A stretch of DNA of 64,000 nt from Longimicrobiales bacterium (lineage in GTDB: Bacteria > Gemmatimonadota > Gemmatimonadetes > Longimicrobiales > Gaopeijiaceae): NCBI GenBank assembly GCA_965202805.1, contig OZ241869.1, positions 2,016,001 to 2,080,000 on the forward strand, in the 5' to 3' direction. The notes beneath the pieces are model-generated. The model ran no database searches. It was given only the letters and a program-made list of their open reading frames with translations, and had not been told where the DNA came from. A program made the translations under genes and the position numbers. Of this stretch, positions 4,451-29,917 are shown in pieces (positions within the stretch are counted from its first letter, which is position 1; each line of letters opens with the position of its first letter).

Positions 4451-4507
4451 TCCCCCAAAAGGTCCTTTCACCGTTACGGGCCTGAACGCGGCTGGAACGG
4501 CAGTCGA

Positions 4508-5041
4508 ATGGCGACGCTGGAGGAGCAATTCAACACACGAATCGGCGGGTTTCTCGACGACACGGGCATGGCGCCGACGACGCTCGGCATGCTGGCGGTG
4601 GGCGACCCGAATCTGATGCGCCAGATCGAGCGGGGCCGCTCGTTGACGCTCAGGACGGCGGACCGGGTGGTCGCGTTCATCGACGACTACGAGCGGGTCG
4701 CGGGCGGCGCCGAGGCTCCGCCCGCCCGACCGCGCAGACGGAGGCCCGCCATGTGGGCGAGGCGGGAGAGCAAGATGCAGCGGAGCGGAGCGATGACGAA
4801 CGAACGCAGCAACGAGCGGACGAACCCGGCGACCCGTCTCCTGCGGATCTCGGAAGTGCAGGCCCGGACGGGCCTGGGGCGGAGCACGATTTACCGGTGG
4901 GCGGCCGAGGGCCGCTTCCCGCGGCCGGTCCGGCTGGGCGGGCGCGTCGCGCGCTGGGTCGAGGCCGAGGTGGACGAGTGGCTCCGGAAATGGCTGGAGA
5001 GGCGCCGGGGCGTCGAGGTCCCGGCGGCGGCACGCAACTGA
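4508..5041 (+). CDS. Cro-like HTH + AlpA-family fusion regulator
   Basis: N-terminal 'PTTLGMLAVGDPNLMRQIERGRSLTLRTADRV' is a phage Cro-like HTH; C-terminal 'LLRISEVQARTGLGRSTIY..GRFPRPVRLG..W..EVDEW' is AlpA-like. Confidence 0.75.
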   Translation: MATLEEQFNTRIGGFLDDTGMAPTTLGMLAVGDPNLMRQIERGRSLTLRTADRVVAFIDDYERVAGGAEAPPARPRRRRPAMWARRESKMQRSGAMTNERSNERTNPATRLLRISEVQARTGLGRSTIYRWAAEGRFPRPVRLGGRVARWVEAEVDEWLRKWLERRRGVEVPAAARN

Positions 5042-5063: not shown

Positions 5064-5351
5064 ATGAGAACGTTGTCGAGAACGCTGCGAGGGGCCGCCT
5101 GGGCCGCGCTGCTGATGCTGACGCCCGGCGCGCTGACGGCGCAGGGCACGAGCCCGTGGGTCGACGCGGTGACCGAGCTTCAGACACAGTTCACCGGTCC
5201 GATCGCGCGCGGGCTGTCGCTGATCGCGATCGTGGTGGGCGGCCTGATGTTCGCGTTCGGCGAAGGCGGGAGCAAGCGCACGCTGGCCGGGATCATCTTC
5301 GGGATCGGGATGGCCGTGGGCGCGGTCAACTTCCTCGGCTGGCTGTTCTGA
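5064..5351 (+). CDS. virB2: VirB2/TrbC-family pilin
   Basis: Signal peptide, 'PW..L...FTGP.A', two hydrophobic helices; first gene of the T4SS cluster. Confidence 0.85.
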   Translation: MRTLSRTLRGAAWAALLMLTPGALTAQGTSPWVDAVTELQTQFTGPIARGLSLIAIVVGGLMFAFGEGGSKRTLAGIIFGIGMAVGAVNFLGWLF

Positions 5352-5656
5352 TGCGGGGCCTCGCGCGCTGGCCGGGCTACGCGGCGCTCAACCGTCCGCT
5401 GACGGTGCTGGGCGTCGAGCGGCGGCTGTTCCTGCTGGGCGCGACGCTCGCCGTCGCGGTGTGGAACGCGACCGCTTCGCTGGTGGCGGGCGGCCTGGTG
5501 TTCGCGGGCTGCTACGGCGCGGGCTGGCTCGCTGGCCGGAGGGACCCGGCCATGCTCGCGGTGCTCCGGGCGGCCGCCCGGTATCCGGCCCGGTTCGATC
5601 CGGGCAAGTGGGCGCACGAGCCGTGGCACCTCCGCATCCGGGCGGGCTCGAAGTGA
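5351..5656 (+). CDS. virB3: VirB3/TrbD-family protein
   Basis: 'ALNRPLTVLGVER' motif, two TM segments, 'DP' motif; TGATG coupling to virB2. Confidence 0.8.
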   Translation: MRGLARWPGYAALNRPLTVLGVERRLFLLGATLAVAVWNATASLVAGGLVFAGCYGAGWLAGRRDPAMLAVLRAAARYPARFDPGKWAHEPWHLRIRAGSK

Positions 5657-8091: not shown

Positions 8092-8972
8092 ACACCATGA
8101 GAAATGCGACCATAGCGGCCCTGCTGGGCGTCATCGTCGTGCTGCTGACGCTGCTGCTCGCGGCGGCCCCCGCCGAAGGGGCCGCCCAGCAAGCTCCCGC
8201 CGACGCGGCCCTGCTCCGGGTGCCCCCGCCGGAGGAGGGCGGCGCGCGCATCCCCCGTATACGCGCGCGCGTGCGCCACACCACGTTAATCGTGCTCCCC
8301 GCCGGGGAGCGGATCCTGGACTTCGTGGCCGGCGACTCCGAGTACTGGCACCTGACCGGCGCGGCGAACGTCGCGTACCTGAAGCCGCTGGCCGAAGACG
8401 CGGCGACCAACATCGCGCTCGTCTGCGAATCCGGCCGCATCTACTCGTTCCTCGTCTCCGAGCACGGCGAGAAGCCGCCCCATCTCGTCGTCCGGGTCGA
8501 GCCGGGCGCGGAGCCGGCGGGGATGGCCGGCGCTCCCGGGTTCGTCGCCCGGAGCGAGGTCGCCGTCTACCGCGAGATGGCGGCCGAGGCCGTCGAGGCC
8601 GCGCGCAGGGCGCGCGAGGACGCGGAGGCCGGCGTTCTCGACGCGCGCGAGCGGGCCGCGGCGGAGGTCGAGGCGTTCCGCGCCTCCTACCCCGAGCGGC
8701 TCCGGTTCGAGTACCGGCTGGACCGGGACGCGCCCAAGCGGCCGTTCCTCGTCGAGGCGATGTGGCACGACGGTGAGTTCACCTATCTGCGTTCGCGCGC
8801 GCAGGAGTCCCCGGCGCTCTACGAGGTCCAGGACGGCGAGCCGAGTCTGGTCGCGTTCGACCTCACCGAGGACGGGCTCTACGTCGCCCGCCGCGTCCTG
8901 GGCGACGGCTGGCTCCAGATCGGCGACAGGCGGCTGCGCTGGCGGTTCGAGCCGGCGGAGAGCGGCCGATGA
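8088..8972 (+). CDS. virB9: VirB9/TrbG-family core-complex protein (start GTG 8088 or ATG 8097)
   Basis: Signal peptide; 'TLIVLP.GERI....GDSEYW', 'LKP....TN', C-terminal 'WHDGEFTY....PALY'. Confidence 0.8.
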   Translation: MNTMRNATIAALLGVIVVLLTLLLAAAPAEGAAQQAPADAALLRVPPPEEGGARIPRIRARVRHTTLIVLPAGERILDFVAGDSEYWHLTGAANVAYLKPLAEDAATNIALVCESGRIYSFLVSEHGEKPPHLVVRVEPGAEPAGMAGAPGFVARSEVAVYREMAAEAVEAARRAREDAEAGVLDARERAAAEVEAFRASYPERLRFEYRLDRDAPKRPFLVEAMWHDGEFTYLRSRAQESPALYEVQDGEPSLVAFDLTEDGLYVARRVLGDGWLQIGDRRLRWRFEPAESGR

Positions 8973-10210
8973 GCCGCTGGAGGCAGTGGGTGAAGGAGCC
9001 GAAGGGCGCGCTGCCGGGCGGCATCGTCACGAAGGCGGGGATCGTGCTGATCGCCGTGCTCGTCGCCGGGCTGCTGCTCTCGTCCTCGCTCTCCGGTCCC
9101 GGCGAGGAGGCGGCCGCGCCCGGAACCCAGCCCGGGGCGCGGGCGGTGGACGGCGGCATGGGCCGGTCGTTCGAAGGACGCCTCCGCGACGAAGCGGAGC
9201 GCCAGACGCAACGCGCCGCCGCCGAGTCCGGCGATGGTCCGGCGGACCGGGAAGCCGGAGCCGACGCGGGCTCGGGGTCCGCCGGGTCCGATGCCGGCGG
9301 GGACGACCCAGCCGGCGGCTTGGGCCGCGCCGAGTTCGAATTGCGCGAAGCGCTTCGGCTCGAAGAGGTCGAGCGCCGGACGCGCTCGCTCCGCTCGCTC
9401 CCCGTCGCGCAGTCGCACCGGGATCCCGACGGGTCTCCGGATGCGGCGGCGTCTCCCCGGGCGCCCGAGTCTCCCGACGCGGCACTCGATGGCGCGCTCG
9501 CGTCGCTCGGGCAATCCCTCTCCGCCCTTGAGGCCGAAATGGCGGCCGGGCTGGCCGCCGGAGAGTTCGCACCCGGCGCCGGCGGCCCGGTGCCGCAGAC
9601 AGGTCGTCCCGCGTCCGGCACATCCGAGCCCGCCCGTTTGGTCCGGCCCCATGATCCGCCGGGCTGGGAGCGGATCCGCGAGGGCACGTTCCTGGAGGCG
9701 GTGCTGGTCACCCAGTTGTCGGGCGAGTTCCCCGGCCCGGTGCTCGCGATGGTGTCGGTGCCGCTGTATTCGGCCGACCGCCAGCGCGTGCTCATTCCCC
9801 GCGGCGCGCGCGTCGTGGGCACGGCGAGCGCGGTCCAGAACCGCGACCAGAGCCGTCTCGCCGTCGCGTTCCACCGGCTGTTGCTGCCCGATGGCAGCTG
9901 GGTCGATCTCCGGTTCGCCGGGCTGAACCAAGCGGGCGAGAGCGCGCTCCTGGACGAAGTGAACCGCCGCTACCTCTCGACATTCGCCGCGGCGGGTGCG
10001 GTCGGCGCGCTGAGCGGCCTCACGCTCGCCGGTGCGTCGCCCTACGGACTCCGCGCGGGCGTCGGCCAGGGGATCGGCGGCAGCGCCAACTCGATGCTGG
10101 ATCGGTACCTGAACCGGCTCCCCGAGATCACGATCCGCGCGGGCCACCGGCTCCGCGTCTGGCTCACTGCGGATGTCCTCGTTCCCACTCCCACCCCCGC
10201 ACACCGCTGA
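8969..10210 (+). CDS. virB10: VirB10/TrbI-family protein
   Basis: N-terminal TM; 'GTFLEAVLVT....PGPV..VS..Y.....LIPRG', 'RL...F.RL..PDG', 'P.ITIRAG'. Confidence 0.88.
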   Translation: MSRWRQWVKEPKGALPGGIVTKAGIVLIAVLVAGLLLSSSLSGPGEEAAAPGTQPGARAVDGGMGRSFEGRLRDEAERQTQRAAAESGDGPADREAGADAGSGSAGSDAGGDDPAGGLGRAEFELREALRLEEVERRTRSLRSLPVAQSHRDPDGSPDAAASPRAPESPDAALDGALASLGQSLSALEAEMAAGLAAGEFAPGAGGPVPQTGRPASGTSEPARLVRPHDPPGWERIREGTFLEAVLVTQLSGEFPGPVLAMVSVPLYSADRQRVLIPRGARVVGTASAVQNRDQSRLAVAFHRLLLPDGSWVDLRFAGLNQAGESALLDEVNRRYLSTFAAAGAVGALSGLTLAGASPYGLRAGVGQGIGGSANSMLDRYLNRLPEITIRAGHRLRVWLTADVLVPTPTPAHR

Positions 10211-10227: not shown

Positions 10228-10853
10228 ATGCTTCACCGCATTCTCATCCCCGCCCTTCTCGTCCCGCTGCTGGCGCTCGCGGACCCCGCGCCCGCGAGCG
10301 CGCAGTTCGACTTCGGCAGCTGGTTCCAGCGGGCCACCATGATCGCGAACCAGCTCACGCAGATCTCGCACCAGGTCACCCAGATCCGGTCAATGGCCAG
10401 CCAGCTTTCGGAACTCGAAGACCAGCTCGACCACATGGAGCGCGCCGCCAAGGGCGAGATCGACGCGCTGCTCCGGCCGTTCTCCGACCTCGCCGCCGGA
10501 CCCGTCGGGCTTGTGAGGAACGGCCTCGGGTGGCGCAGGGACTTCACCGGCCCGGCCCGGGACATGGTCGGCGCGGTGCGCGACTTCGGCCGCGGGCGCT
10601 CCTTCACCGGTCTGTGGCGCACCGCCCACGGGACCGCCGACCGGGTGAGCGAGGCCGACCTCCTGGCTCTCCACCGGAACCTTCCGCCCCGGGCCGCCAC
10701 GCAGGCGCTCGAGGACTACCGTCGAGCGCGGGAGACGGCCGACCGGCAGCGAGCGCTCGACTACGCGGCGCTCGACGCGGCGGCCGAACTCGCCTCGACC
10801 ATCGAGAGCGCGCGGGGCTCGTTCTCGGGCCTGACCGCGAACGGCAACCTGTC
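10228..10853 (+). pseudogene. 5' part of VirB5/TrbJ-like protein, interrupted by the nested element
   Basis: Signal peptide (ASAQ) and Gln-rich amphipathic helix 'NQLTQISHQVTQIRSM'. Sequence turns unrelated after 'NGNLS', which recurs at 19493. Confidence 0.75.
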
Positions 10854-10908
10854 GAGAGAGCACGTAAGTCGTTGTGTCCATTGGCTCATTGGCTCGCGGG
10901 CCTTCGAG

Positions 10909-10945
10909 ATGCCCCCAGAGTTGCCCCAAACGTGCAGTTGCCCCC
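10909..10945 (+). repeat. Putative integrase arm-type sites, left end ((A/T)TGCCCC x3)
   Basis: ATGCCCC 10909, TTGCCCC 10921 and 10938; the same motif recurs at the other IME end. Confidence 0.6.
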
Positions 10946-11112
10946 AGCACCCGTCAGCGACGCCTCGCTGCCCTTCCGGTGCTGGGCGCGTGCGCGGAGC
11001 CCGTCGCGGAGGCTGGCGACAACCAGCCGGTTCTCGTGCTCCACACCAAGCACTACGGCACCAACGCCCGGATGATTCCGGGATTCACCATTGAGAGAAG
11101 GAGGACGGAGCG

Positions 11113-11340
11113 ATGACGAGTGTGATCGAAAAGAAAACGCGAGCGCCGGGACGCTTTCTGCGGCTGCCGGAGGTAATGGCCCGCACCGGCCTGTCGCGGA
11201 GCACGATCTATGTGCGGCTGGACGAGGGGCGCTTCCCCCGACCAGTCTCGCTGGGCGGTCGCGCGGTCGGCTGGATCGAGGCCGAGGTGGACGAGTGGAT
11301 CCGCGAGCGGATCAAGGAGAGCCGGGGCGGGGATGCCTAG
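11113..11340 (+). CDS. alpA: AlpA-family regulator / recombination directionality factor of the IME
   Basis: 'FLRLPEVMARTGLSRSTIY....GRFPRPVSLGGRAVGWIEAEVDEWI'; upstream GGAGG RBS. Confidence 0.9.
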   Translation: MTSVIEKKTRAPGRFLRLPEVMARTGLSRSTIYVRLDEGRFPRPVSLGGRAVGWIEAEVDEWIRERIKESRGGDA

Positions 11341-11408
11341 CAGGGAGCCACCACAGCCACTTGAGGTGTGGCTTGAGGCCCGAGTCGACTCACGGGCGCA
11401 ACGTCGGC

Positions 11409-11437
11409 TTGACAGGCAGACAACGGTTCGCTACGCT
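11409..11437 (+). promoter_or_regulatory. Sigma70-type promoter TTGACA-N17-TACGCT
   Basis: TTGACA 11409-11414, exactly 17 nt spacer, TACGCT 11432-11437. Confidence 0.7.
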
Positions 11438-11442
11438 CTAGT

Positions 11443-11518
11443 CGGGACGCACCTACGGTGGACCTCCATCGTACTGCCCCCTTTCCGAGGCCCGCGCTCC
11501 GGCGCGGGCCTTCGTGTT
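11443..11518 (+). ncRNA. Candidate structured small RNA/leader with terminator hairpin upstream of the DUF3800 gene
   Basis: Stem TACGGTGG/CCATCGTA (11454-11473), then a 10-bp hairpin AGGCCCGCGC-TCCG-GCGCGGGCCT (11488-11511) followed by TCGTGTT. Confidence 0.5.
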
Positions 11519-11538
11519 CCCTGCTCCAGACGATTCCT

Positions 11539-12300
11539 GTGACCTATTTTGCCTACCTTGACGAATTCGGTCACATCGGCCCCTACGTCAGTCGCGAAGA
11601 CCCACAACACAACGATAGCCCCGTCTTCGGACTTGCTGGGTTCGTGATACCCATCACGCAGATACGCGGATTTGCGATGTGGGTTTTCCGTCTCAAGAAG
11701 CAGGTGTTCTCGCACGAACTGGCGAGGTCCGACAAGATTCCCGCGCAGTGGGAGAAGAAGGGATCTAGCCTCTACACCGTCAAGAACGTGACCCATTACC
11801 GCCAGACCAGACTGCTCACCAACAGGTTACTCGAAAAGGTCACCACCCTCGGCGGATTCGTTTTCTACGTTGGAACCAAGAAGACCGCAGGCGTAGACAG
11901 CCACAACTCCAACAGCCTATACACGGCCACGTTTCTGGAAGCGATCAAGCGGATCGACCAATTCTGCACGGAGGACTGCGGTCCGGGAACTAGGTTCATG
12001 GTGGTCCTCGACGAACACAGCCGCCGCTCAGCCATCGTCACCGCAGCGGGGCAGAGCATGTTTGGGGGCACCGAGCCACGACGCCGGCTCATTGAGCCCC
12101 CGTTCCAGGTAGAAAGCGATCGCTATCAAACAGTTCAGGCTGCCGACTGGATCGCAGGGCTGGTGGGACGAATCGGGGCGTACAGGGCGGATCCGGTAGC
12201 GTATCCAGAGAACGAGGTGTTCCTCAAGTACTTCGGCCAACGCCTCCAAGATCACTCCCGCCGTTCTGGGATACGAGGAGCGAGTCCGCTCGCCCAATGA
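11539..12300 (+). CDS. DUF3800-family protein (RNase H-like fold; putative toxin/defence nuclease)
   Basis: N-terminal 'YFAYLDEFG', central 'VVLDE', C-terminal 'VQAADWIAG'. GTG 11539 is preferred over the longer ORF start. Confidence 0.8.
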   Translation: MTYFAYLDEFGHIGPYVSREDPQHNDSPVFGLAGFVIPITQIRGFAMWVFRLKKQVFSHELARSDKIPAQWEKKGSSLYTVKNVTHYRQTRLLTNRLLEKVTTLGGFVFYVGTKKTAGVDSHNSNSLYTATFLEAIKRIDQFCTEDCGPGTRFMVVLDEHSRRSAIVTAAGQSMFGGTEPRRRLIEPPFQVESDRYQTVQAADWIAGLVGRIGAYRADPVAYPENEVFLKYFGQRLQDHSRRSGIRGASPLAQ

Positions 12301-12739
12301 TCGATTCGTACGCACCCTTCTCCATAGACTCGTTTCTCCCTTGAGCCCGCTCGTGGTTCCCCCCAGGTAGAATCGGTTACGGCCATTCGCGGAATCGGCA
12401 GGTTACCGAGCCGCGGTGCAGGTTGCGGGTACTCACGAAGATGCGTCACTGGGGAGGGTGGCGCTTGAACGCCCGGCGGCGCGACTGTGCCTCCGTCCGC
12501 CGCCATCATGGTTGTTCCCCGTTCGAGTCCTTGAGGAAGGCGATGGAGGTGCCGCTGGCGGAGGGCGATACGGCTCCGGGACGGCGCTGGACCCCTTTGG
12601 AAAGCGCCTCGATTCGGGCGGTTGACACGGTCGGAATCAGGCTTCTCCGTGTAAGGTATGGAGATGCCGCCGACCCGAGATTCCCGCCGCCGGAAGCCGT
12701 CTCGCGCGCTTGCCGGGGGGCTGTCTGACACCCTTAAGG

Positions 12740-12800
12740 TGGGAGAGCCAGCCTACCCCCGGTATAACCGCGGGGCTGGCGAGGGACGTTGCCCCTTCGA
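12740..12800 (-). other. Putative oriT of the IME (ColE1/MOBP5-like nic context)
   Basis: Minus strand reads GGGGGTAGGCTGGCTCT, resembling ColE1 nic CTGG^CT. It lies upstream of mobC with nearby inverted repeats. Confidence 0.45.
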
Positions 12801-12877
12801 TCCCCAACAGACCCGCGCTCCGGTGGATTGCGCGGGCGGGGGCGTGGCCCCCGTTCCCCCCGTGACGGCGCTTCCCG

Positions 12878-13216
12878 ATGGCTAGACGCCGCCCGGTCAT
12901 CGTCGCCGTCCGCCTCACGCCGGACGAGTCCGCCGACTGGCGGACCAAGGCGGCGGCCGCGGGCGTGCCGCTCTCGGCGCTGATCCGCCGTGCGATGGCT
13001 CGCACGCGGACGTGGACGGCCCCTGCGGCCGAGGTCGAGCGCGAGCGCAACCGGCAGGTCTCCCGCATTGGGAACAACCTCAACCAGATCGCCCGGTGGG
13101 CGAATACCCACAAGGGCGCGGCCGAGGCCGTCGAGATCGTCGCCCGCCTGGTCGCCATCGAGCGGGCGCTGCTCGCCGTGGCCCGCATCGACGAGGACGG
13201 CGGCGATGCACATTAA
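12878..13216 (+). CDS. mobC: MobC/MbeC relaxosome accessory protein (RHH)
   Basis: 'VAVRLT.DE.......A...G..LSALIR' RHH and 'RIGNNLNQIARWAN' MobC signature. Confidence 0.9.
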   Translation: MARRRPVIVAVRLTPDESADWRTKAAAAGVPLSALIRRAMARTRTWTAPAAEVERERNRQVSRIGNNLNQIARWANTHKGAAEAVEIVARLVAIERALLAVARIDEDGGDAH

Positions 13217-14771
13217 GTTCCTCGCCCGCGGGACCGGATCGGCGGGGGCGGCGGCTGACTACCTCCTCGGGGAGCGCGACGCGACCGGCCAGCCACGCGA
13301 GGGCGTCGAGGTGTTGCGGGGGAACCCGGACATGGTGGCCGCGATGGCCGACTCGCTCGACTTCGAGCACAGGTACACGTCCGGCGTGATCGCATGGGCA
13401 CCGGAGGACCAACCCACCGACGAGCAGATCGAGGCGGTCCTGGACGCCTTCGAGGAGACGGCTTGGGCGGGACTGGAGCCCGACCGATACGCTTGGGCCG
13501 CCGTGCTACACCGCGAGCGCGGCGGCGGTGCTCACGTCCACGTCCTCGCCGCGCGGTGCGACTTGGAGACCGGGCGGAGCCTCAACATCGCGCCCCCCGG
13601 CTGGCAGAGGACGTTCGACCCGCTCCGCGACGCCTTCAACCACGAACACGGCTGGAGTCGGCCCGACGACCCGCAGCGGGCCAGGGTGCAGCACCCCGGA
13701 CACCGGGCCTACGTCGAGGCGGCGCGGCTCAGGACCGGCCTCGGCCTCGAACCCGAGCCACGCGACCTGATCCGGGACTACCTGCTCCAGCGAGTCGAGC
13801 ATGGCACGGTGCGGAACCGGGCCGATGTTGTCGCCGCCCTGCGGGAGGCGGGGCTGGAGGTGCCGCGCCAAGGCAAGGACTATCTCACGGCGCTGGACCC
13901 CGAGACCGGAGACCGCTGGCGGCTGAAAGGAGAACTGTATGGAGAGAACTTCGAGCGCGAACGATTTGACCGCGCGGCTGAGGAGACGGCTGGAGAACGA
14001 GCGCGGGGAAATCGAGGAGTTGACCGCGAGCGAGCTGAAGCGGCTCGGCGAGAACTCGCGGCGCGTCGCGAGGAACGCGCTGCGTACCATCGAGCGCGAT
14101 ACGGAGGAGGCGACCGGGCGGATGCGCGAGTTGCTGGCAAAGGCTTGGCAACGGCCCCTGATCGTCGGCCTGAGCCTTTGGATCGGTTTCTTCGGCGGAA
14201 GCTGGGCGACGATGCGCTGGTTGGCGGGGAGTATCCAAGCCCGGATCGAGACCCGCGCCGAACTGGGCCGGGACATCGAGGACGCTCGGCGGACGCTGGC
14301 CCAACTGGAGGTGGACACTTGGGGGCTCGTGTTCCACGAGATCAAGGGCGAGCGGTTCGTGGTGGTGCCGGACGGGGCGTTGGACGATCCGCCTTGGAAG
14401 GTGGACGATCGTCCGGCGTTGAAGCTGTCGAACGAGTGAAGGAGGTCTATGACCGCGTTAGAGGAGCATTTGACGAGGGCCTTGCGGAGGTTGTCCGCGC
14501 AGTACGAGACGGAACAGCGGCGGCACTCCGGGCAGGTCGAAGCCTTGCGGCGGCGCGTCGAGCGGCAAAGCGGGGAGAGCGAAGCCTTGCGGCAGCGCGT
14601 CGAGCGGCTGAGTGCGGAGAACGAAGTCTTGCAGCGGCGAATCGAGCGGCTCGACGTGCTGGCGACACGCTTGGCCGAGTATTCCGGGACATCCGCCGCC
14701 GCGAGACCGCGCGGCCTCCGCATCTGATGCGCCGTCCGGGACCGGATCGCGATCAGGGTCCGAGCCGTTGA
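13206..14771 (+). CDS. mbeA: MbeA/MobA-like (MOBP5) relaxase
   Basis: 'MHIKF..RG.G....ADYLLG', 'YTSGVIAW', 'WAAVLH.......HVH'; same gene order as the ColE1 mob region. Confidence 0.85.
   Translation: MHIKFLARGTGSAGAAADYLLGERDATGQPREGVEVLRGNPDMVAAMADSLDFEHRYTSGVIAWAPEDQPTDEQIEAVLDAFEETAWAGLEPDRYAWAAVLHRERGGGAHVHVLAARCDLETGRSLNIAPPGWQRTFDPLRDAFNHEHGWSRPDDPQRARVQHPGHRAYVEAARLRTGLGLEPEPRDLIRDYLLQRVEHGTVRNRADVVAALREAGLEVPRQGKDYLTALDPETGDRWRLKGELYGENFERERFDRAAEETAGERARGNRGVDRERAEAARRELAARREERAAYHRARYGGGDRADARVAGKGLATAPDRRPEPLDRFLRRKLGDDALVGGEYPSPDRDPRRTGPGHRGRSADAGPTGGGHLGARVPRDQGRAVRGGAGRGVGRSALEGGRSSGVEAVERVKEVYDRVRGAFDEGLAEVVRAVRDGTAAALRAGRSLAAARRAAKRGERSLAAARRAAECGERSLAAANRAARRAGDTLGRVFRDIRRRETARPPHLMRRPGPDRDQGPSR
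13939..14439 (+). CDS. mbeB: MbeB-like mobilization protein overprinted within the relaxase gene
   Basis: Alternate-frame ORF with AGGAG RBS, coiled coil and single TM; same position as ColE1 mbeB. Confidence 0.65.
   Translation: MERTSSANDLTARLRRRLENERGEIEELTASELKRLGENSRRVARNALRTIERDTEEATGRMRELLAKAWQRPLIVGLSLWIGFFGGSWATMRWLAGSIQARIETRAELGRDIEDARRTLAQLEVDTWGLVFHEIKGERFVVVPDGALDDPPWKVDDRPALKLSNE
14449..14727 (+). CDS. mbeD: MbeD/MobD-like protein overprinted within the relaxase gene
   Basis: AAGGAGG RBS; 'MTALEEHLTRALRRLSAQY' resembles the MbeD N-terminus; coiled coil. Confidence 0.75.
   Translation: MTALEEHLTRALRRLSAQYETEQRRHSGQVEALRRRVERQSGESEALRQRVERLSAENEVLQRRIERLDVLATRLAEYSGTSAAARPRGLRI
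14538..14651 (+). repeat. 42-bp tandem repeat (~2.7 copies) read in two frames
   Basis: Units begin CGAAG(C/T)CTTGC at 14538, 14580 and 14622. Confidence 0.85.
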
Positions 14772-14921
14772 TGACTGACGCTCGAGGAATCCCGGCGGCA
14801 CCCCCGGTCTTGGTCCAGACCGCGCACACAACGACACCGTCTCGATCAACTCGGAACGCTCCTGCGAGGCGTGACGTCGCAGAATCGCGGTCGCGCTACC
14901 TAGACGCGCCGCATTCAGCGA

Positions 14922-16025
14922 TCAGACTGCGGCAACGGGCAACCGGGAGGTCTCGTTGCTCTTCCCTACCATCTGTCGAAAGTAGTCCCAATAGGGCTGT
15001 TGCCTTACCAGCGTCTTGGCCGCGTCGTGGTCCAAGCCACCCGTTCTCCATGGAACCTCCACCGTCATTCCGGACAGCTTCTGCTGGTAACACTGGCGAC
15101 CATAACCGTACCTCCACTTCTGCTGGTTGATCATCGCAGCGATCAGAACCACGGTTTCCAACGGCATTTCCGCGCGAGGCCGGAGGACGATGACGTTATC
15201 TGTCACGATGAATTCACGAGACTGCACGAAGGCGTCTCCGCCAACCGTGCTTACGGTTATCGTTCCCGGCGGATACACGTTGCTCCCCTCGGGTTGCTCA
15301 TAGTATCCAGCCACCCCGTTGTCGTTCGTGGTTCTGGACACGGTCGGCCATGGACCACGCCCGAGCGCGCCGAGAGAATGGAAGTCGCCCCGGACTAAGT
15401 GGAAGATCTCGTCCACCCGCTTCGTGACCCAATCGGTCCTCTTCGGCGCGCCTACCCGTCGGTGAGGCAGTCGCAGGTCGAGTTCAGCAACGGAACTGGC
15501 TTCCCGTGTACCCTCATCATTGTCGGTTCTCGTCGGCCCCCTGGCCGCGGATCGTCCGTGAGGCGGTCGCAGGTCGAGCTCAGCAACGGAGATGGCTTCC
15601 CGAATACGTTCGTTGTCGATTCGCACCGCCGCGCCGTTGGTATGGACCGGTACGTCGATGAGCAGATCGCCCAGCTTTCCCTTGAAGCACTTCCGTCCAT
15701 AGGAGTAGCGCCAGCGTAACGCGTTGATGAGCGCTACTACGTAAACCAACGACAGTTCTTCGGCTTCCTGCCGTGGTAGGAGAATGCCGATATCGTCCTT
15801 AGCCCCGAACTCATACGGCCGGTACTTAGCCGTCAGCGTAGCGCCGTTGTAGGCTACCGTGATGACGTTGGAATAGCGCCTTTCCTGAGGTATGTCGAAG
15901 CGGTCGATAAATCCGTGATTGATATCGCCACATGACACGAGCGGCACGGAGCCCGGAGCGAGTTCATGGAGGGCGTGGTAGTCGCCGGACTTGATGTCGA
16001 ACAGCTTACGGAGTTGGATGGGCAT
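14922..16025 (-). CDS. Restriction-modification specificity subunit (two TRDs; BcgIB/HsdS-like)
   Basis: Two homologous halves ('LFDIKSGDYH..WRYSYGRKC' / 'IFHLVRGDFH..WRYGYGRQC'); overlaps the end of the MTase gene. Confidence 0.8.
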   Translation of the reverse strand: MPIQLRKLFDIKSGDYHALHELAPGSVPLVSCGDINHGFIDRFDIPQERRYSNVITVAYNGATLTAKYRPYEFGAKDDIGILLPRQEAEELSLVYVVALINALRWRYSYGRKCFKGKLGDLLIDVPVHTNGAAVRIDNERIREAISVAELDLRPPHGRSAARGPTRTDNDEGTREASSVAELDLRLPHRRVGAPKRTDWVTKRVDEIFHLVRGDFHSLGALGRGPWPTVSRTTNDNGVAGYYEQPEGSNVYPPGTITVSTVGGDAFVQSREFIVTDNVIVLRPRAEMPLETVVLIAAMINQQKWRYGYGRQCYQQKLSGMTVEVPWRTGGLDHDAAKTLVRQQPYWDYFRQMVGKSNETSRLPVAAV

Positions 16026-17919
16026 CGCCCTCGCCTCCGTCCCAGACCGCGTCAACGCCGTTGCGAACGAGGAACGCCGCGCACTCGCGAAGCACCCGCT
16101 CCACGCCTCTCCCGATGTCGCCCTCCGACAGCGGCTCCTGTTCCAGGTATGCTTCGGGTATCAGTTCCAGCTGCTTGTCCTCGAAATCGATGGGTGCCGC
16201 GATCATGTACCGTGGCCGGCTCAGGACATCCAGCGACGGGTCGTTGATGAACGCCCGCAGCGTTGGGATCGCCTCTTCAAGCTGATCGCCCGTACGGTGG
16301 CTCGTAAGCCGCTTCCCCTTCGATTTCAGGTGTCCGTCCGTTTCGGCCCGGACCCACAGGGTCTTCTGTTCCTTGAGATGTGGCGTGCCTTTCCGAATCA
16401 CGACGCCAACGGGAGGCGCAGCCACGGGATAGAAGACATCGATGGGAAGCGTGATCACCGCCAAGAGTGTGTTCCGCTTCAGCAACTCAGAACGCCAAGT
16501 CTTGGCCGCACCGCCCTTTGCCATCACCGAGTAGGGGAGAATACTGAAGAGCAAGCCATGCTCCTCCAGTTGGCGGAGGGCGTAGCTGACGAACTCGTAA
16601 TCCTTGTGTTTGCTCTTATCGCGCGTAAACGGGGGATTCATGAGCACGCGCGTGACCGGGGAGTTGGTCGTCGGCGCATCCACGAACCGAGCCGTTGGCC
16701 CATCCGGTCCCCGGGCGGTCGCCAGATGTTTCTGCATACAGTCGGCTGGCTCGATGTTGTTCTTTCCGTCTCCCCGGAAGATCATGTTCACCACGGCCAA
16801 AGCGCAGATGCCGTCATCGAGTTCCAAGCCGAAAACCGACCTCCTCTTGAAGGCCTCAAGCTGGGAGGGCGTGCAGGTCTCCTTGGCCTGCTCAAACGCC
16901 GCGACCAGGAATCCGCCAGTCCCGCAGGTCGGGTCGTAGACGATATCACGAGCCGTGATGTTCATGATTCGGGCCGCGAACTTCGTGACGTGGCGAGGCG
17001 TCAGCACGATGCCCAGTTTCTGCGCCCATCTCGCATATTTCAGGAACACTTCGTAGAACGTTCCCAACCAGTCGGCACCCGAGCGCATAGCCGAATGGAT
17101 GTTCAGCCCCCGCAACTCCTGCAACGCCTCTACCAGCGCGCGGCGGTAGATGGCGTGATTGTTCGTGGCGGCCGGTATGGGAATCCGGATGTGGTCCTCG
17201 AATCCCTCCTTGCCCTGCTGCTGAAGGACACGGCGGACCCTAGTGTTGATGTCTCCAATGAGTACGGACGTATCCTTCTCTTCGATGTTCGGTGCCCCGC
17301 TTGGATTCAGCATGGAGAGCAGCAACGCCGACACGACCTTGGGCCGATCGTGCGCCTGGACGCTCCCCGCGTCTAGCGTGGCGTTGATGCGCTCAGCCGT
17401 CAGCACGAATCGCCGATCGTCGATTGGCGGGTCAGCGATGTCGGGGCCTGCTGCATCGAACAGAGTCTGGCAGTCAGACGGCGACAGGAATCCCGTCGCC
17501 GGGATCCCATTGATCGTAACCGCCGTCCACGTACCGTCGATGTTGACTTCCGTAGATACCAAGAAGCCGTCATCGTCATTGCCCGCCACACCCGACACCA
17601 AAGGAACCTCGTAGTCGTCGCCGACAATCAGCATTTCGGCGTACTCCCGAGCGTCCTTCATCGCTTCCGAAAGCTGCCCGTGCGTACTCTTGGATTCGAT
17701 CACCCACAGGCGGCGATCCGTAACCGTTACGATGTTCTCGGGCCTGTTCAGTCCCAGCCGCGCCTTCATGCGGGGGTTGGACAGACACTGATTCTGGGTG
17801 TAGACCTGACCGTCGGGGTTCCGTTCGGGGTTCTTGGTGGACCAGCCGATTTCACCGAGCTTCCGCTTGATGAAGATGTACGCATCCACCTCCGTTGGTC
17901 TGCCCCGACGCGGGCTCAC
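16006..17919 (-). CDS. Fused endonuclease-N6-adenine methyltransferase (Type IIB/BcgIA-like)
   Basis: N-terminal 'RPENIV....WVIESK' PD-(D/E)XK-like motif, 'YDPTCGTGGFL' motif I, 'NPPF' motif IV; GTG 17919 with GAGGAGG RBS. Confidence 0.85.
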   Translation of the reverse strand: MSPRRGRPTEVDAYIFIKRKLGEIGWSTKNPERNPDGQVYTQNQCLSNPRMKARLGLNRPENIVTVTDRRLWVIESKSTHGQLSEAMKDAREYAEMLIVGDDYEVPLVSGVAGNDDDGFLVSTEVNIDGTWTAVTINGIPATGFLSPSDCQTLFDAAGPDIADPPIDDRRFVLTAERINATLDAGSVQAHDRPKVVSALLLSMLNPSGAPNIEEKDTSVLIGDINTRVRRVLQQQGKEGFEDHIRIPIPAATNNHAIYRRALVEALQELRGLNIHSAMRSGADWLGTFYEVFLKYARWAQKLGIVLTPRHVTKFAARIMNITARDIVYDPTCGTGGFLVAAFEQAKETCTPSQLEAFKRRSVFGLELDDGICALAVVNMIFRGDGKNNIEPADCMQKHLATARGPDGPTARFVDAPTTNSPVTRVLMNPPFTRDKSKHKDYEFVSYALRQLEEHGLLFSILPYSVMAKGGAAKTWRSELLKRNTLLAVITLPIDVFYPVAAPPVGVVIRKGTPHLKEQKTLWVRAETDGHLKSKGKRLTSHRTGDQLEEAIPTLRAFINDPSLDVLSRPRYMIAAPIDFEDKQLELIPEAYLEQEPLSEGDIGRGVERVLRECAAFLVRNGVDAVWDGGEGDAHPTP

Positions 17920-18101
17920 GCGACCTCCTCTCGGCACCGGGGCATCTGATCGAAGGGGTGTTCCCGGATCTCTTTCTGCCGCCGTGGCAGGGGGTTGGTC
18001 ATCGCGAGAGTAGTCCTCTTGGAGGGATGAGAGGAACGGCCGGTGCGCCTGAAAGGTAACGGTCTTGTCAACCTCGGGGACCACTGCCGCAGGAAACGGC
18101 T

Positions 18102-19319
18102 TCACCGGGAACGTAGCGTTCCCGGCTCGATTTCGCCCGTCCGGAGCCGGTCCAGATAGTCGGCCCAAGCCTGCATCATGATGCGGCGCTCGGGTAGGAA
18201 CGCCGTCCGGTTGTAGGCCCGGCCGTTGGGATCCCTGACGGCGTGGGCCAGCTGATGCTCGATGAAGTCGGGCCGGAACCCCAGCACCTCGTCCAGAATC
18301 GTGCGCGCCATCGCGCGGAATCCGTGCATCGTCATCCGCTCCTTCGGGATGTCCAGCGCCCGGAACGCGCTCCAGAGCGTGCCCCGGCTCATCGGTAGCT
18401 CCCGGTATGGAAAACGCGCGTTCGGGAAGGCGTAGCGGTGGTGCCCCGTCATGGGACGGACCTCGCGGAGGATCGCGACCGCCTGCCGCGCCAACGGCAC
18501 CACATGCGGCCTGCCGGTCTTCGTCACCGTGTAGCGCCACTCGGCCCCTTCAAGGTCGATGCCGTCCCACTCCGCCGCGACCAACTCGCCGAGGCGCACG
18601 AAAACCAGCGGCGCGAGCCGGAGCGCGCAGCGCACCGGGAGCGTCCCGGAATAGGTGTCCAACTGCCGTAGCAACGGACCGACCTCCCTCGGGTCGGTGA
18701 TCGCCGCGAAGTGCTTCGTCTTGACGGGCGGCAGCGCCCCGCGCAGGTCCGCCGACACGTCCCGCTCCGCGCGTCCCGTCGCCACGGCGTAGCGTAGCAC
18801 CCGCCCGCAGACCTGGAAGACGGTGTGCGCCTTCCTCAGGTGGCCGCGCGCCTCGACGCGGCGGACCACGGCCAGCAGGTCCGGCGCGGTGATTTCCGCG
18901 ACCGGACTCGCGCCGATGTAGGGGAAGGCCTCCCGCTCCAGCTCGCGCTCAAGCCGCCGAACCCAACCCGCGGACCAGTTGGGCGAGTGCTTGGTCAGCC
19001 ATTCGGTCGCCACGGCCTCGAAACTGTTGTTGGCCCCTTGCCGCCGGGACTGCTTCCGCGCCTTCCGGTAGGCGCTCGGGTCGATGTCCCGCGCCAGCAG
19101 CTTGCGGGCCTCGTCCCTGCGCTGCCGCGCCAGCTTCAGCGAGACCTCGGGATAGATCCCCATCGAGATCCGCTTCTCCCTGCCCGCGAAGCGGTACTTG
19201 AAGCGCCAAGCCTTGGTGCCGCGCGGGGCGATTTCGAGGTAGAGGCCGCGGCTGTCGTACAGCTTGCGCGGCTTCTCGCGGGGCTTGGCCTTGCGGATGG
19301 CGGTGGCTGTCAGTGGCAT
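18102..19319 (-). CDS. int: P4/IntB-type tyrosine integrase with arm-binding domain (IME)
   Basis: 'MPLT...IRKAKP....KLYD..GLYL', 'FVRLGEL', 'HGFR', 'QLAH', 'AYNR'. Confidence 0.95.
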   Translation of the reverse strand: MPLTATAIRKAKPREKPRKLYDSRGLYLEIAPRGTKAWRFKYRFAGREKRISMGIYPEVSLKLARQRRDEARKLLARDIDPSAYRKARKQSRRQGANNSFEAVATEWLTKHSPNWSAGWVRRLERELEREAFPYIGASPVAEITAPDLLAVVRRVEARGHLRKAHTVFQVCGRVLRYAVATGRAERDVSADLRGALPPVKTKHFAAITDPREVGPLLRQLDTYSGTLPVRCALRLAPLVFVRLGELVAAEWDGIDLEGAEWRYTVTKTGRPHVVPLARQAVAILREVRPMTGHHRYAFPNARFPYRELPMSRGTLWSAFRALDIPKERMTMHGFRAMARTILDEVLGFRPDFIEHQLAHAVRDPNGRAYNRTAFLPERRIMMQAWADYLDRLRTGEIEPGTLRSR

Positions 19320-19322
19320 GTT

Positions 19323-19369
19323 GGGGCATCCTGTAAGCGTTACGGAGATATGCCCCTGAATGATGCCCC
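19323..19369. repeat. Putative arm-type sites, right end (GGGGCAT inverted; ATGCCCC x2)
   Basis: 19323-19329, 19350-19356 and 19363-19369 match the left-end motif. Confidence 0.6.
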
Positions 19370-19492
19370 AATAATGACCGGGATGTCAAGGAGTGGGAGC
19401 GGATCGCCCTGGAGGCGAAATGTCCCGTAAACCCATTGCTTACAACACTTATTGGGATTCCATGGAACGCCCCTGAACCTCGATCGACAGAA

Positions 19493-19777
19493 AACGGCAA
19501 CCTCTCCAACACAGCCCTCCAGCAGGCTTCGGTCGCGGCGGCGCTGAGCCAGGGACGCATCAACGCGGCCGTCGGCCAGGTGCTCGCCCACGAGGCCGCC
19601 CTCGAGGCGAGCCGCGCGCGGCAGGCCGAACTCGCCCGGCTCGAATGGCTCGGCCGCTGGGCCGATGGCCGCACGCGCGCGAACGCGCTTGCCGAGGAGA
19701 TGCGCGACGCGGCGTCGCTGAACCGGGCCGCGCTCCGCGGCGGGCTCCTGCTCCGCGTCCCGTCGTTCTACCGGTAG
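19493..19777 (+). pseudogene. 3' part of the interrupted VirB5/TrbJ-like gene
   Basis: Begins 'NGNLSNTALQQ', in frame with the 5' part; ends 14 nt before virB6. Confidence 0.75.
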
Positions 19778-19791
19778 GGGGCGCGACGGCC

Positions 19792-20781
19792 ATGCAACTT
19801 CCCCCGCAGTCCATCGACCCGAACGTGCCCTCGCAGATCCCGGCCGATCAGCTTCAGGACTTCAAGAGCTTCCTCGACATCGTGCTCGACTCGGTGGTCG
19901 GCGGAGCCGCGCCCGACGTGCACGCGCTGGGCCTCCAGCTCTGGGGCGGGCTCGCCGCCGTGATGGTCGCGTGGACGGGACTCAAGATCGCGTTCAGCGG
20001 CACCTTCCACCCCTGGGAGATCGTCAGGCTCGTGATCGGGATCGCGATCCCCCGCACGCTGCTCCACTACTACGTCGTCCCGATCCCCGGCGCCGGGCTC
20101 ACGTTTCCGGCCATGATCGCCGGAGGCGGGATCTGGCTCCAGAACCTGTTCCTCTCCGACGTGGTGTCGGCGGGCTACACCGAGATGACCGCGCTCGTGC
20201 AGGCGTACTCCGCCCATTTGAGCGCGGCGTGGTCCACGGGCAACCTGCTGTCGGTCGTGACGGCGGGCGCGACCGTGATCTTCTCCTCGCTCGCCTCGCT
20301 CGCGATGGGCGCCTCGCTCGTGGTCTGCCTGCTGGCGCTGTTCTGCGTCACCTACGCGCAGGTGATCTGGGCGCAGGTCGCCATCGCCATCGCGATCCTG
20401 CTCGGTCCGGTGTTCATCGCGTTCCTGCTCTTCGAGCCGCTCTCGTTCCTGTTCTGGGGATGGTTCCGGACCATGATGGTCTACACGCTCTACGGCGTCG
20501 TGGCCGGGGCCGTGCTGCGGGTCTTCATGGGCGTCGGCATGGGCTACATCACGACCTACGCCGACGCGCTCATGGGCACCGGCACCGCCGATCCGTTCGA
20601 GCTCTGGCTCTGGGCCGTCGTGCTGATGCCGCTCATCGTCTCCGGCCTCATGGCCGGCCTCAAGGTCGGCGAACTCGCCGGGATGCTCGTGTCCGGCTCC
20701 GGCAACGCCGGGTCCGGGTTCGTCGCGCTCATCATGCGCGGAGCCGGGGCCGCCGCGGCCCCGGCCAAGCCACCCGCCTGA
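19792..20781 (+). CDS. virB6: VirB6/TrbL-family inner-membrane protein
   Basis: Polytopic membrane protein with 'ILLGPVFIAFLLF......FWGW'. Confidence 0.8.
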   Translation: MQLPPQSIDPNVPSQIPADQLQDFKSFLDIVLDSVVGGAAPDVHALGLQLWGGLAAVMVAWTGLKIAFSGTFHPWEIVRLVIGIAIPRTLLHYYVVPIPGAGLTFPAMIAGGGIWLQNLFLSDVVSAGYTEMTALVQAYSAHLSAAWSTGNLLSVVTAGATVIFSSLASLAMGASLVVCLLALFCVTYAQVIWAQVAIAIAILLGPVFIAFLLFEPLSFLFWGWFRTMMVYTLYGVVAGAVLRVFMGVGMGYITTYADALMGTGTADPFELWLWAVVLMPLIVSGLMAGLKVGELAGMLVSGSGNAGSGFVALIMRGAGAAAAPAKPPA

Positions 20782-20798
20782 ACCCCTGGGAGAAGCCA

Positions 20799-21467
20799 AT
20801 GAAACGAGACCGTGACGCGGGCCGCGAGTACGCCGAGATCTGGGGCGAGGCGGTGCAGGCGAACCGGAAGCTGCGGAGGATCGTTGTGCTGCTTGCCGCG
20901 AGCATCGTCCTCGGCGTCCTGGTCCTGGTGCGGATCGCGGGCACCGAGCCGCCCAAGCCCATCGTGATCCGAGTGGACGAGGTGGGCCGCGCCGAGGCGC
21001 TGGCCTACGAGGCCGCGACCGCGCAGGCCGATCCGCTCGATCCGACCACCAAGTATTTCCTCAACCGGTTCGTCCACGACTTCCACTCGCGACGGCGGGC
21101 GACGGTGCAAGAGCACTGGACGCGGAGCCTCCGGTTCCTCTCGACTGGACTCGCCAACGCGGCGTTCGCGCGCGACGGCGACGAGGTGGCCGCCGTGGCG
21201 GCCGGGACCGCCGAAACCGAGTCCCAGGTCGAACAGGTGGTGCTCCGCATCCACCCCGCGCCCGAGCCGCCGCACGGCGCGACCGCCGACTTCGATCTCG
21301 TGCACCTCAGCGGCGAGCAGGAGGTCCGGCGCGAACGCTGGTCGCTCACGCTCCGGTTCGAGTTCCTCGACTCCGTCCCGCCCGAGCTGGTCGTCCACAA
21401 CCCGATGGGGCTCCTCGTCACCTACATGCAGGCCGACCGGGCGCTCGTGACCGGGGAGTCGCCGTGA
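20799..21467 (+). CDS. virB8: VirB8/TrbF-family protein
   Basis: Single TM, 'PIVIRVD..G', 'YFL.RFV', C-terminal 'NPMGL.V'. Confidence 0.85.
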   Translation: MKRDRDAGREYAEIWGEAVQANRKLRRIVVLLAASIVLGVLVLVRIAGTEPPKPIVIRVDEVGRAEALAYEAATAQADPLDPTTKYFLNRFVHDFHSRRRATVQEHWTRSLRFLSTGLANAAFARDGDEVAAVAAGTAETESQVEQVVLRIHPAPEPPHGATADFDLVHLSGEQEVRRERWSLTLRFEFLDSVPPELVVHNPMGLLVTYMQADRALVTGESP

Positions 21468-22399: not shown

Positions 22400-22703
22400 C
22401 CGCCCGGAAGCGGGTCCCGGTGCTGCACCGGGAGTGCACATGTCACATCGGGGTCCTTGTGCACGGAAACCGCGTTCCGGCGTGCACGCCTCCGGTTCCG
22501 CATGCCGCTGGCGCGCTTTCGGTTGCGCCACGTCCGGCGGAGTGCGGGTGCCGATCCGCGCTCCGCGGACGTGGATGGGAGCGACCCCCCATCTCGGCAT
22601 GCCTCGATCGGCACCGGGAAGGATGGCGATGTGCATCCCCATCCTCCCCGCCGCTGCGGGGTCGCTCCCAATCAGCAGTCCCTACGGGAAGGTTGTCCGT
22701 CCG

Positions 22704-26987: not shown

Positions 26988-27009
26988 CGGCCGCTTGAGA
27001 AGCAGGGAG

Positions 27010-29843: not shown

Positions 29844-29917
<74 letters not shown>

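Follow-up and report, generated by a model that had tools for sequence, protein, structure and literature searches.

An integrative and mobilizable element inserted at a single codon of a TrbJ/VirB5-like gene in an integrative and conjugative element of the Longimicrobiales

The stretch of DNA analyzed here (the window, 64 kb) covers positions 2,016,001-2,080,000 of OZ241869.1, a single contig of 4.02 Mb from a Longimicrobiales bacterium; the names attached to its homologues and to related loci belong to the Gemmatimonadota, order Longimicrobiales, near 'Candidatus Palauibacter'. It contains the type IV secretion system (T4SS) genes of an integrative and conjugative element (ICE), and between its virB10 and virB6 genes a TrbJ/VirB5-like gene is split in two by an integrative and mobilizable element (IME) of 8,653 bp, whose GC content is 0.60-0.67 against 0.71-0.75 in the flanks. 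The 14-nt pattern AACGGCAACCTNTC is matched twice in the window (10840 and 19493) and never in 100 shuffles. These direct repeats are identical at all of their first 11 bases and at 13 of 14 over the 14-mer, and both encode NGNLS in frame with the flanking open reading frames (ORFs), the codon differences (CTG/CTC and TCG/TCC) being synonymous. A first-pass annotation of this DNA had proposed such in-frame repeats and had added that removal of the 8,653 bp rebuilds a 298-residue ORF. Translation of both copies bears out the former, and computed deletion of the interval gives a 298-codon gene, the exact length of 100 of the 120 best clusters of homologues, in which the uninterrupted sequence reads NGNLS and then NTALQQ.

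Both junctions are crossed with zero differences by contigs of two runs, X23 (records 17 and 23) and X24 (records 25 and 32), which hold 97-98% of the stretch, and an assembly chimera is therefore excluded. A contig of X2, an unrelated sponge metagenome run from another study, joins 10851 to 19505 and skips 8,653 bases; this contig shows the site unoccupied in a related element. Across aligned junctions the attL arm consists of the gene flank, the core and then GTCRAGR..., while the attR arm reads ...ATCGACAGAA, the core and then NTCNAAYAC, and both arms are conserved between occupied loci.

The content of the insert was analyzed by Pfam and NCBIfam scans (Table 1), which confirmed that it carries an integrase, an AlpA protein and a relaxase, as first annotated, and returned no match to VirB4, a coupling protein or any other T4SS gene in the ORFs of 10855-19492. 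By this gene content the insert qualifies as a complete IME in the sense of Coluzzi et al. 2017 (PMC5357655), whose definition combines a complete integrase and a complete relaxase with the lack of VirB4 and of other T4SS genes. Judged from the same genes, the IME is shown to depend on an outside T4SS and coupling protein. The integrase has three domains, Arm-DNA-bind_3 (E 1.3e-26), Phage_int_M (E 1.5e-32) and Phage_integrase (E 9.6e-13), and is 97% identical to its full-length relatives; the TTGACA of the promoter-like site upstream of it is conserved in related loci. The left non-coding end of the IME shows 78-86% nucleotide identity to the other occupied loci. Five of the 15 matches to TGCCCC(C)A in the window fall in the two non-coding ends (10910-10946 and 19321-19371), the total count in the window being not above chance, and these repeats may be arm-type integrase sites. 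A small ORF follows the DUF3800 gene. The fold energy of the candidate oriT was no better than that of shuffled sequences (z = -1.3).

The mobilization genes resemble those of ColE1 (MOB-HEN type), in which mbeA is accompanied by mbeC and contains mbeB and mbeD in a different frame. Here too, a MobC/NikA-like gene precedes an MbeA-like relaxase gene, whose 3' half is overlapped in another frame by two ORFs, one mobB-like, without a Pfam or NCBIfam family match, and one MbeD-like. Residues 1-496 of the relaxase align to positions 1-472 of the 497 of the MbeA profile with a score of 101.8 bits against a cut-off of 500; by this score it is a relative of MbeA and not an equivalog, and, unlike in ColE1, the module sits on an integrated element rather than on a plasmid. 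The possibility that the relaxase gene is frameshifted at ~13900 was rejected, as its full-length frame aligns to MbeA from end to end and the second frame corresponds to the conserved nested ORFs. Within the overlapping relaxase and mbeD-like ORFs, three tandem 42-nt repeats were observed at 14520-14645, 69-83% identical to the first.

The host element has an integrase, a T4SS, a coupling protein and flanking repeats, and on these features it is an ICE. The order of its genes according to Pfam and NCBIfam is AlpA-domain protein, TrbC/VirB2, VirB4, an ORF of unknown function, TrbI/VirB10 and the split gene, followed by TrbL/VirB6, VirB8, another such ORF, a VirD4-type coupling protein, VirB11 and ArdC, and it ends with two further unknown ORFs, a tyrosine integrase and tRNA-Ile. 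The first 40 bases of this tRNA gene (29844-29883) are repeated with 97.5% identity at genome positions 2001249-2001288, 44.6 kb away and 14.7 kb before the window start. Bounded by these repeats, the ICE measures ~44.6 kb including the insert. A search of the whole genome (G000) for a second T4SS set or a second copy of the split gene found none.

Table 1. Coordinates of the split gene, the inserted IME and the host ICE in the window
Feature	Position	Strand	Evidence
ICE 199-aa protein, C-terminal AlpA domain, just 5' of the T4SS genes	4442..5041	+	Pfam Phage_AlpA E 1.9e-19
ICE pilin gene TrbC/VirB2	5064..5351	+	Pfam TrbC E 6.8e-17
ICE VirB4/TrbE ATPase gene	5248..8091 (frame open from 5248; first listed start 5461)	+	NCBIfam VirB4_CagE E 4.1e-70, Pfam P-loop
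ICE TrbI/VirB10 gene	8969..10210	+	Pfam TrbI E 5.1e-33
Split gene, 5' part, codons 1-209	10228..10854	+	translation; 92% identity to homologues
attL core (repeat copy 1)	10840..10853	+	repeat search, junction alignment
IME left non-coding end (258 nt), three TGCCCC(C)A repeats at 10910-10946	10855..11112	+	motif search
IME alpA, first IME gene, strand of the T4SS genes; putative excision factor/regulator	11113..11340	+	Pfam Phage_AlpA E 8e-24
IME cargo, DUF3800 protein gene	11458..12300	+	Pfam DUF3800 E 4.4e-15
IME candidate oriT: conserved block, imperfect inverted repeat, 5' of mobC	12735..12810	+	conserved in 8/8 aligned IME copies
IME relaxosome accessory gene, NikA/MobC-like	12878..13216	+	Pfam NikA-like E 2.7e-14, MobC E 9e-13
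IME relaxase gene, MbeA-like, 521 aa	13206..14771	+	NCBIfam relax_MbeA_E1 E 5e-29; Pfam Relaxase E 1e-6
IME mobB-like ORF nested in relaxase gene, other frame	13939..14439	+	frame switch in third-position GC (GC3) at ~13900; 55-94% conserved in other IMEs
IME mbeD/mobD-like ORF nested in relaxase gene, other frame	14449..14727	+	Pfam MbeD_MobD E 2.9e-6
IME cargo, restriction-modification specificity subunit	14922..16055	-	Pfam Methylase_S E 7.3e-6; PADLOC Specificity_II E 3.2e-13
IME cargo, N6 DNA methyltransferase, type IIG/type I kind	16006..18084 (start uncertain)	-	Pfam N6_Mtase E 3.5e-31; PADLOC REase_MTase_IIG E 8.5e-36
IME tyrosine integrase gene, P4-type, 405 aa	18102..19319	-	Pfam, three domains
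Promoter-like site upstream of int, facing attR	19360..19389	-	TTGACA-18-CATCAT, 10/12 matches
attR core (repeat copy 2)	19493..19506	+	repeat search, junction alignment
Split gene, 3' part, codons 205-298 and stop	19493..19777	+	translation; 84% identity to P0005 residues 202-298
ICE TrbL/VirB6 gene	19645..20781	+	Pfam TrbL E 5.9e-13
ICE VirB8 gene	20817..21467 (approximate start)	+	Pfam VirB8 E 9.1e-14 on longer ORF 19971-21467
ICE coupling protein gene, VirD4/TraG type, intact here	22434..24746	+	Pfam TrwB_AAD_bind, TraG-D_C
ICE VirB11 ATPase gene	24743..25759 (approximate start)	+	Pfam T2SSE E 6.8e-47
ICE ArdC-like antirestriction gene	25950..26987	+	Pfam ArdcN, MPTase-PolyVal
ICE tyrosine integrase gene	28621..29793	+	Pfam Phage_integrase E 1e-19
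tRNA-Ile gene	29844..29917	+	ARAGORN

The same codon is occupied in other genomes. Among 301 genomes of the order, 44 carry the trbJ-like gene, all of them in one family, and related IMEs occupy the codon in at least seven of the 44 (G000, G109, G142, G160, G172, G175 and G234), where the matches break at residues ~198-217; G224 is a possible further case, and ~80 uninterrupted matches were counted in the 301 genomes. The same right junction was found in L007, L009 and L017 of the genome collection. Searching with the N half of the split gene, 103 of the 120 best homologue clusters were uninterrupted (three of them with 299-305 aa, in addition to the 100 of 298 aa), 16 changed right after NGNLS into the same IME left-end read-through, in various frames, and one was otherwise truncated. 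The occupied loci that we fetched share one order, namely VirB10, N half, alpA, cargo, mobC, relaxase with nested ORFs, cargo, int on the opposite strand, C half and VirB6, with inserts of 8.65, 11.8, 14.3 and 18 kb, and ~71 kb in G142. The alpA gene comes first and on the T4SS strand in all five left junctions seen (the window and all four others retrieved). Integrases at occupied loci are 89-97% identical to that of the window, with 90-97% for the fetched loci; the DUF3800, specificity and methylase cargo of the window is absent from all other IMEs compared. By these comparisons the insertion is recurrent and specific for this codon. The first-pass annotation had suggested looking for integrase homologues at the same codon, and had warned that homologues lying mostly elsewhere would point to a one-off insertion; the integrases from the occupied codon instead form a single clade (see below).

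In the window, the open frame of the 5' half continues into the IME and stops at 11094. We considered whether the IME might provide, in the read-through tail that follows NGNLS, a functional alternative C terminus for the protein; this was rejected, as the tail has no coding GC3 signal and its frame varies among relatives.

In relatives the trbJ-like gene is often multicopy, with as many as seven matches in one genome. Intact and split copies occur together in G109, G142 and G175; G000 and G160 have the split copy only. Of 30 uninterrupted copies (L086-L115, codons 205-208), 14 carry the exact core AACGGCAAYCT and 16 do not. The variant cores hold synonymous changes or encode NRNLS, NRNIS, NSNIS, NSNVS and others, in otherwise conserved flanks, and could be neutral variation of a loop or escape from IME integration.

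Integrase-AlpA islands of the P4/CP4-57 type usually occupy tRNA or tmRNA genes. The IME shares with them the Arm-DNA-bind_3, Phage_int_M and catalytic domains of its integrase, an AlpA-family protein and an int gene facing its attachment site ~170 nt away. Consistent with this, 39 of 43 distant integrase homologues (50-68% identical, from other phyla) have a tRNA or tmRNA gene that ends at most ~300 nt upstream of int, and three of the four exceptions have less than 300 nt of flank. In contrast to these islands, int has no neighbouring tRNA or tmRNA gene in any of the 17 close homologues, and no tRNA lies near the int of the window. Sixteen of the 17 are labelled Longimicrobiales or Gemmatimonadota and one Vicinamibacteria, and they adjoin protein-coding ICE genes or other sites. 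A tree built from 30 integrases places the 21 Gemmatimonadota rows in one group (support 100/100) that branches from within the tRNA/tmRNA-associated ones, indicating that this integrase clade is derived from relatives that target tRNA or tmRNA genes.

Within the same tree, a single clade (support 100/99) unites the 10 rows from the trbJ-like site and includes L008. In that locus (L008:9817-9853) an IME whose integrase is 91% identical to ours sits in a different, unannotated ORF of 465 aa, and the junction shares 17 bases with attB; given these 17 common bases, it looks like a secondary site. Sister subclades, with integrases ~82% identical, adjoin the coupling-protein gene at ~codon 344 (L012b and L013; L013:9539-11188) and at ~codon 72 (L012; L012:7663-11200), and another, L011, adjoins a homologue of ORF 27921-28235. 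When the coupling protein was searched in 161 genomes of the family, many matches broke at residues ~322-353 and several at ~264-266, so this gene looks like a second and a third insertion hot spot. A Pfam search of the junction-adjoining ORFs of the other subclades identified only the coupling protein of L012, and gave nothing for L010, L014, L015, L018-L020 and L041. L007 (L007:834-6833) holds the IME closest to ours, with an integrase 97% identical, and the same ICE has a second interrupted gene: that for the coupling protein is split near residues 66-91 by an insert of ~4.7 kb with a distant integrase (30% identical).

We then examined signs of activity of the IME. The ratio of nonsynonymous to synonymous changes (pN/pS) is 0.07-0.21 for int, compared with eight relatives, 0.29-0.37 for alpA and 0.17-0.23 for the N domain of the relaxase, values that place all three under purifying selection. 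Nucleotide identity between integrase genes is 92-95% across most occupied loci (88-89% in L009 and L123). At the same loci the flanks show 73-83% identity for the trbJ-like halves, 82-84% for virB10 and 79-91% for virB6. Integrases that are far more alike than their flanks suggest movement of the IME between diverged ICEs, with the caveat that the target gene is fast-evolving. Neither half of the gene has a stop or frameshift in any of the occupied loci retrieved.

Joined forms were searched directly, as the first-pass annotation had advised for both the empty site and the circular junction. The former was found in a relative (the X2 contig described above), while source-like runs gave the occupied form only and no circle. 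A 34-nt degenerate attP-type motif had no match in metagenome contigs; this blank is uninformative because the collection scarcely contains these elements, the matching attR motif being found in only one stretch there. Over the 301 genomes of the order, the attP-type motif had one match, in G088 (L130:18060-18093, contig 24, 1.5 kb from its end), where an exact attP-type junction runs from the IME right arm (15 nt) through the core into the left end with alpA. On the other side of this junction lie chromosomal genes (a solute symporter, a helix-turn-helix protein and a glyoxalase-family protein), with no integrase nearby; the junction is neither a circle nor a simple tandem.

The consequences of the insertion depend on the function of the split gene, whose family is narrow: a search of 1.84 billion proteins gave 181 representative clusters at E <= 0.001. 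The gene lies directly upstream of virB6/trbL in the T4SS cluster, and this order is kept in all related loci. Its product begins with what looks, by eye, like a signal peptide, and the AF2 model of an intact homologue (41-sequence alignment, pLDDT 71) is all-helical, with long helices at 30-70, 154-208 and 212-289 and short ones between; the insertion point, residues 205-209, would be the turn between the last two long helices. Among the 41 aligned family members, TrbJ_Ti matches six (best E 2.1e-8), the PRK13874 TrbJ model five (best E 7.8e-7), PF07996 three and VirB5 one (E 6e-4), all below the cut-offs. By position, architecture and transitive similarity, the gene appears to encode a distant relative of TrbJ/VirB5, its membership lying below the family cut-offs. 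Uninterrupted copies are under purifying selection (pN/pS 0.23-0.26).

Taken together, these data make plausible, in our view with slightly less than even confidence, a reading in which excision of the IME gates the transfer of its host ICE. In this model, the dedicated attachment site of the IME family would be the inside of the trbJ/virB5-like gene of a Longimicrobiales ICE family, where the P4-type integrase would recombine an 11-14-bp core, AACGGCAAYCT and often then GTC, encoding the predicted turn residues 205-209. In the integrated state, the trbJ-like gene ends in non-coding sequence with its last 89 residues cut off, and the downstream T4SS genes, from virB6 to virB11, are parted from the upstream operon by 8.65 kb containing three convergent genes, so the ICE would probably be unable to build its mating apparatus. 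As NGNLS is encoded by either repeat copy, excision by Int and AlpA is predicted to join the halves without a shift of frame and to restore the 298-aa gene. Activation of the ICE transfer operon could itself read through into alpA and lead to excision, as alpA comes first among the IME genes, 258 nt downstream of attL and on the T4SS strand, and the + strand from the end of the N half to alpA has no predicted terminator-like site. Once excised as a circle, the IME would then use its oriT and MbeA-type relaxosome to be mobilized by the repaired ICE machinery, and in a recipient it could settle only at such an ICE or at a look-alike site. The AlpA of the IME is 58% identical to residues ~124-190 of the 199-aa AlpA-domain protein of the ICE, a likeness that allows regulatory cross-talk between the two elements without demonstrating it.

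Several observations weigh against this gating by excision. The first concerns the identity of the target: the intact homologue P0005 falls below cut-offs with PF07996 (E 0.52) and with TrbJ PRK13874 (E 0.016), PF07996 has no match over the whole genome, and hhalign of the family profile against TrbJ of pTiC58 gave a probability of 27% over 12 columns, nothing usable. Foldseek of the AF2 model against the PDB returned no match at E <= 0.001, VIA-align wide gave a best Z of 7.8 to generic helical proteins, and the family profile found only weak coiled-coil matches among PDB sequences; the fold searches are non-specific and neither support nor exclude VirB5. The virB5/trbJ assignment of the first-pass annotation is thus retained for its position and transitive profile matches, with every family cut-off missed and the pTiC58 comparison empty. 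Since the homology is transitive and below cut-offs, the essentiality of the gene is an assumption.

Other points against the gating concern excision itself. No rejoined or circular joint was found in the X23 and X24 contigs, which is weak evidence as contigs lose rare forms. For the C half, pN/pS is 0.35 between occupied and nearest intact copies, compared with 0.23 among intact copies, a value that does not separate old divergence from continuing selection. Some copies have decayed: the integrase is cut to residues 1-296 (L017 = L125) or 1-73 (L124). In G160, the IME relaxase is split at residues ~107-133 by a 6.3-kb element (L117:5051-12118), whose ICE-type integrase is 71% identical to that of the ICE in the window, and in G142 (L120:5534-15601) a whole second ICE, with an integrase 72% identical to the same protein, is nested in the IME next to mobD, leaving the trbJ-like halves ~71 kb apart. 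Copies with a truncated integrase or nested insertions are clearly stuck and, from their structure, no longer switches. Finally, when an IME that lies in an ICE gene of Streptococcus suis and looks complete was tested, no excision was detected, and the ICE still transferred (PMC7168690).

The same observations could be explained by one-way sabotage, in which the ICE gene is a landing pad harmless to the host cell, insertion kills the ICE, the IME is inherited vertically or mobilized by other conjugative elements, and the restoration of the gene is a geometric by-product. The decayed and nested copies just described fit this explanation, as does the presence of the occupied form only in source-like runs, and 16 of 30 uninterrupted copies without the exact core are what would be expected if harmed ICEs escape. 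In their treatment of streptococcal elements, Coluzzi et al. (PMC5357655) argued that disruption of conjugation genes is cheap for the host, and the S. suis element without detectable excision is IME_SNF2 (PMC7168690). Sabotage accounts poorly, however, for purifying selection on the integrase, alpA and mob genes and for target halves that are open in every occupied locus retrieved; it also has to contend with a genome that offers no other T4SS for the IME to use, and with the contrast between integrase and flank similarity, which points to repeated recent moves needing excision and transfer. On balance we regard it as somewhat unlikely.

Less probable still, and in our judgment distinctly unlikely, is hitch-hiking in cis, where the IME would be transferred as a passenger of the ICE, with the TrbJ-like protein supplied in trans by co-resident ICE copies and excision unneeded. 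Passive carriage of IMEs by ICEs has been described in S. suis (PMC7168690), and the multicopy relatives, including the three genomes with intact and split copies together, could supply the protein; G000 and G160, with the split copy only, could not do so. A pure passenger, moreover, would not need its own relaxase, accessory genes and oriT-like block, which are kept under selection here, and integrase similarity would not be expected to be decoupled from that of the ICE flanks. An assembly artefact, or a chance repeat beside an unrelated insertion, is refuted by the shuffles, by the contigs of two runs across both junctions and by the recurrence of an identical architecture in independent genomes.

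A wider interpretation can be drawn from the targets of the sister integrases, and we offer it as speculation that we ourselves find doubtful. A radiation of P4-type integrases in the Longimicrobiales might have left tRNA and tmRNA genes for the coding sequences of ICE transfer genes, giving rise to a guild of IMEs that act as conjugation checkpoints in an arms race with ICEs, comparable to that between phages and phage satellites. Targets would include codon 205 of the trbJ-like gene, ~codons 72 and 344 of the coupling protein, and others; ICEs would respond by varying the attB codons, and elements with ICE-type integrases would land in turn in IME relaxase genes.

To our knowledge, IMEs inside ICE transfer genes had been recorded only in streptococci and related bacteria, and most of them carry serine recombinases. 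Coluzzi et al. 2017 (PMC5357655) placed 12 of 16 serine-integrase IMEs of streptococci inside traG, maff2 and snf2 of Tn5252-type ICEs, and proposed that induction of conjugation leads to IME excision, restoring the conjugation module and allowing both elements to transfer. The excision-gating idea is therefore not new, having been put forward in 2017 for streptococcal IMEs (PMC5357655), and in the field conjugation gating by such IMEs has the standing of a hypothesis. As described there and by Libante et al. 2019 (PMC7168690), the streptococcal IMEs share with the present one an integrase and relaxase of their own without a T4SS, site-specific disruption of conserved ICE genes and nested 'matrioshka' arrangements. 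They differ in having serine recombinases, Bacillota hosts, Gram-positive-type ICEs of the Tn5252 superfamily and, in the case of traG, the VirD4 coupling protein as target, whereas here we find a P4-type tyrosine integrase with AlpA, a gemmatimonadotal host, a VirB/Trb-type T4SS and a target in the TrbJ/VirB5 position. Tyrosine-integrase IMEs with an attachment site in an ICE transfer module are also on record, in the putative oriT of ICEs of the Tn916 and ICESt3 families (Puymege et al. 2015, cited in PMC5357655); those target the non-coding oriT, and the present site is coding, with the frame kept by both repeats.

The geometry is likewise familiar from host genes, in developmental switches and 'active lysogeny'. 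At sigK/skin of Bacillus and comK/phi10403S of Listeria, a gene interrupted by a mobile element is made whole by exact excision once its product is required. The interrupting elements in these cases are prophages, or remnants of them, in host genes, whereas here a mobile element lies within the gene of another and the switch is predicted from geometry alone. Both examples are cited in PMC5357655 (Kunkel 1990 and Rabinovich 2012). A limited literature search found no papers on ICEs or IMEs of this lineage, and the description of the order does not contain 'conjugat'. The element is a real, recurrent and site-specific IME in a TrbJ-like ICE gene, and represents a known strategy with a different recombinase class, target, T4SS type and phylum. 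The same strategy has here arisen independently, from tRNA-targeting tyrosine integrases, in an uncultured phylum associated with sponges and sediments. The occupied, empty, variant and decayed sites form a natural series that may serve as a comparative system for satellite target choice and helper escape, and for annotation they suggest that many 'truncated' T4SS genes in these genomes are attachment sites rather than signs of decay.

Some further features of the ICE and of the genome were observed. The left part of the ICE contains sensor kinases, a C5 methylase, a second recombinase and a very large cadherin-like protein. The latter, with cadherin-like, fibronectin-III and Calx-beta repeats, exceeds 2,000 aa across the window start (window 3-3899; also L116:13343-15598), just before the T4SS genes, and may be a surface adhesin carried by the ICE. 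No relaxase family was recognized by Pfam and NCBIfam in the ICE ORFs scanned. The ORF at 26995-27900 (301 aa), which follows ardC, has no Pfam or NCBIfam match and resembles a Replic_Relax (PF13814) protein-atlas cluster with a score of 0.90; it may be a candidate for the ICE relaxase. Outside the window, at 3212760-3215410 of the same genome, we found an ICE remnant that comprises the terminal part of VirB8, a homologue of ORF 21464-22399 and residues 1-116 of a coupling protein. Right behind it lies an integrase 74% identical to that of the ICE, and two more such integrases are present at ~1.00 and ~1.11 Mb.

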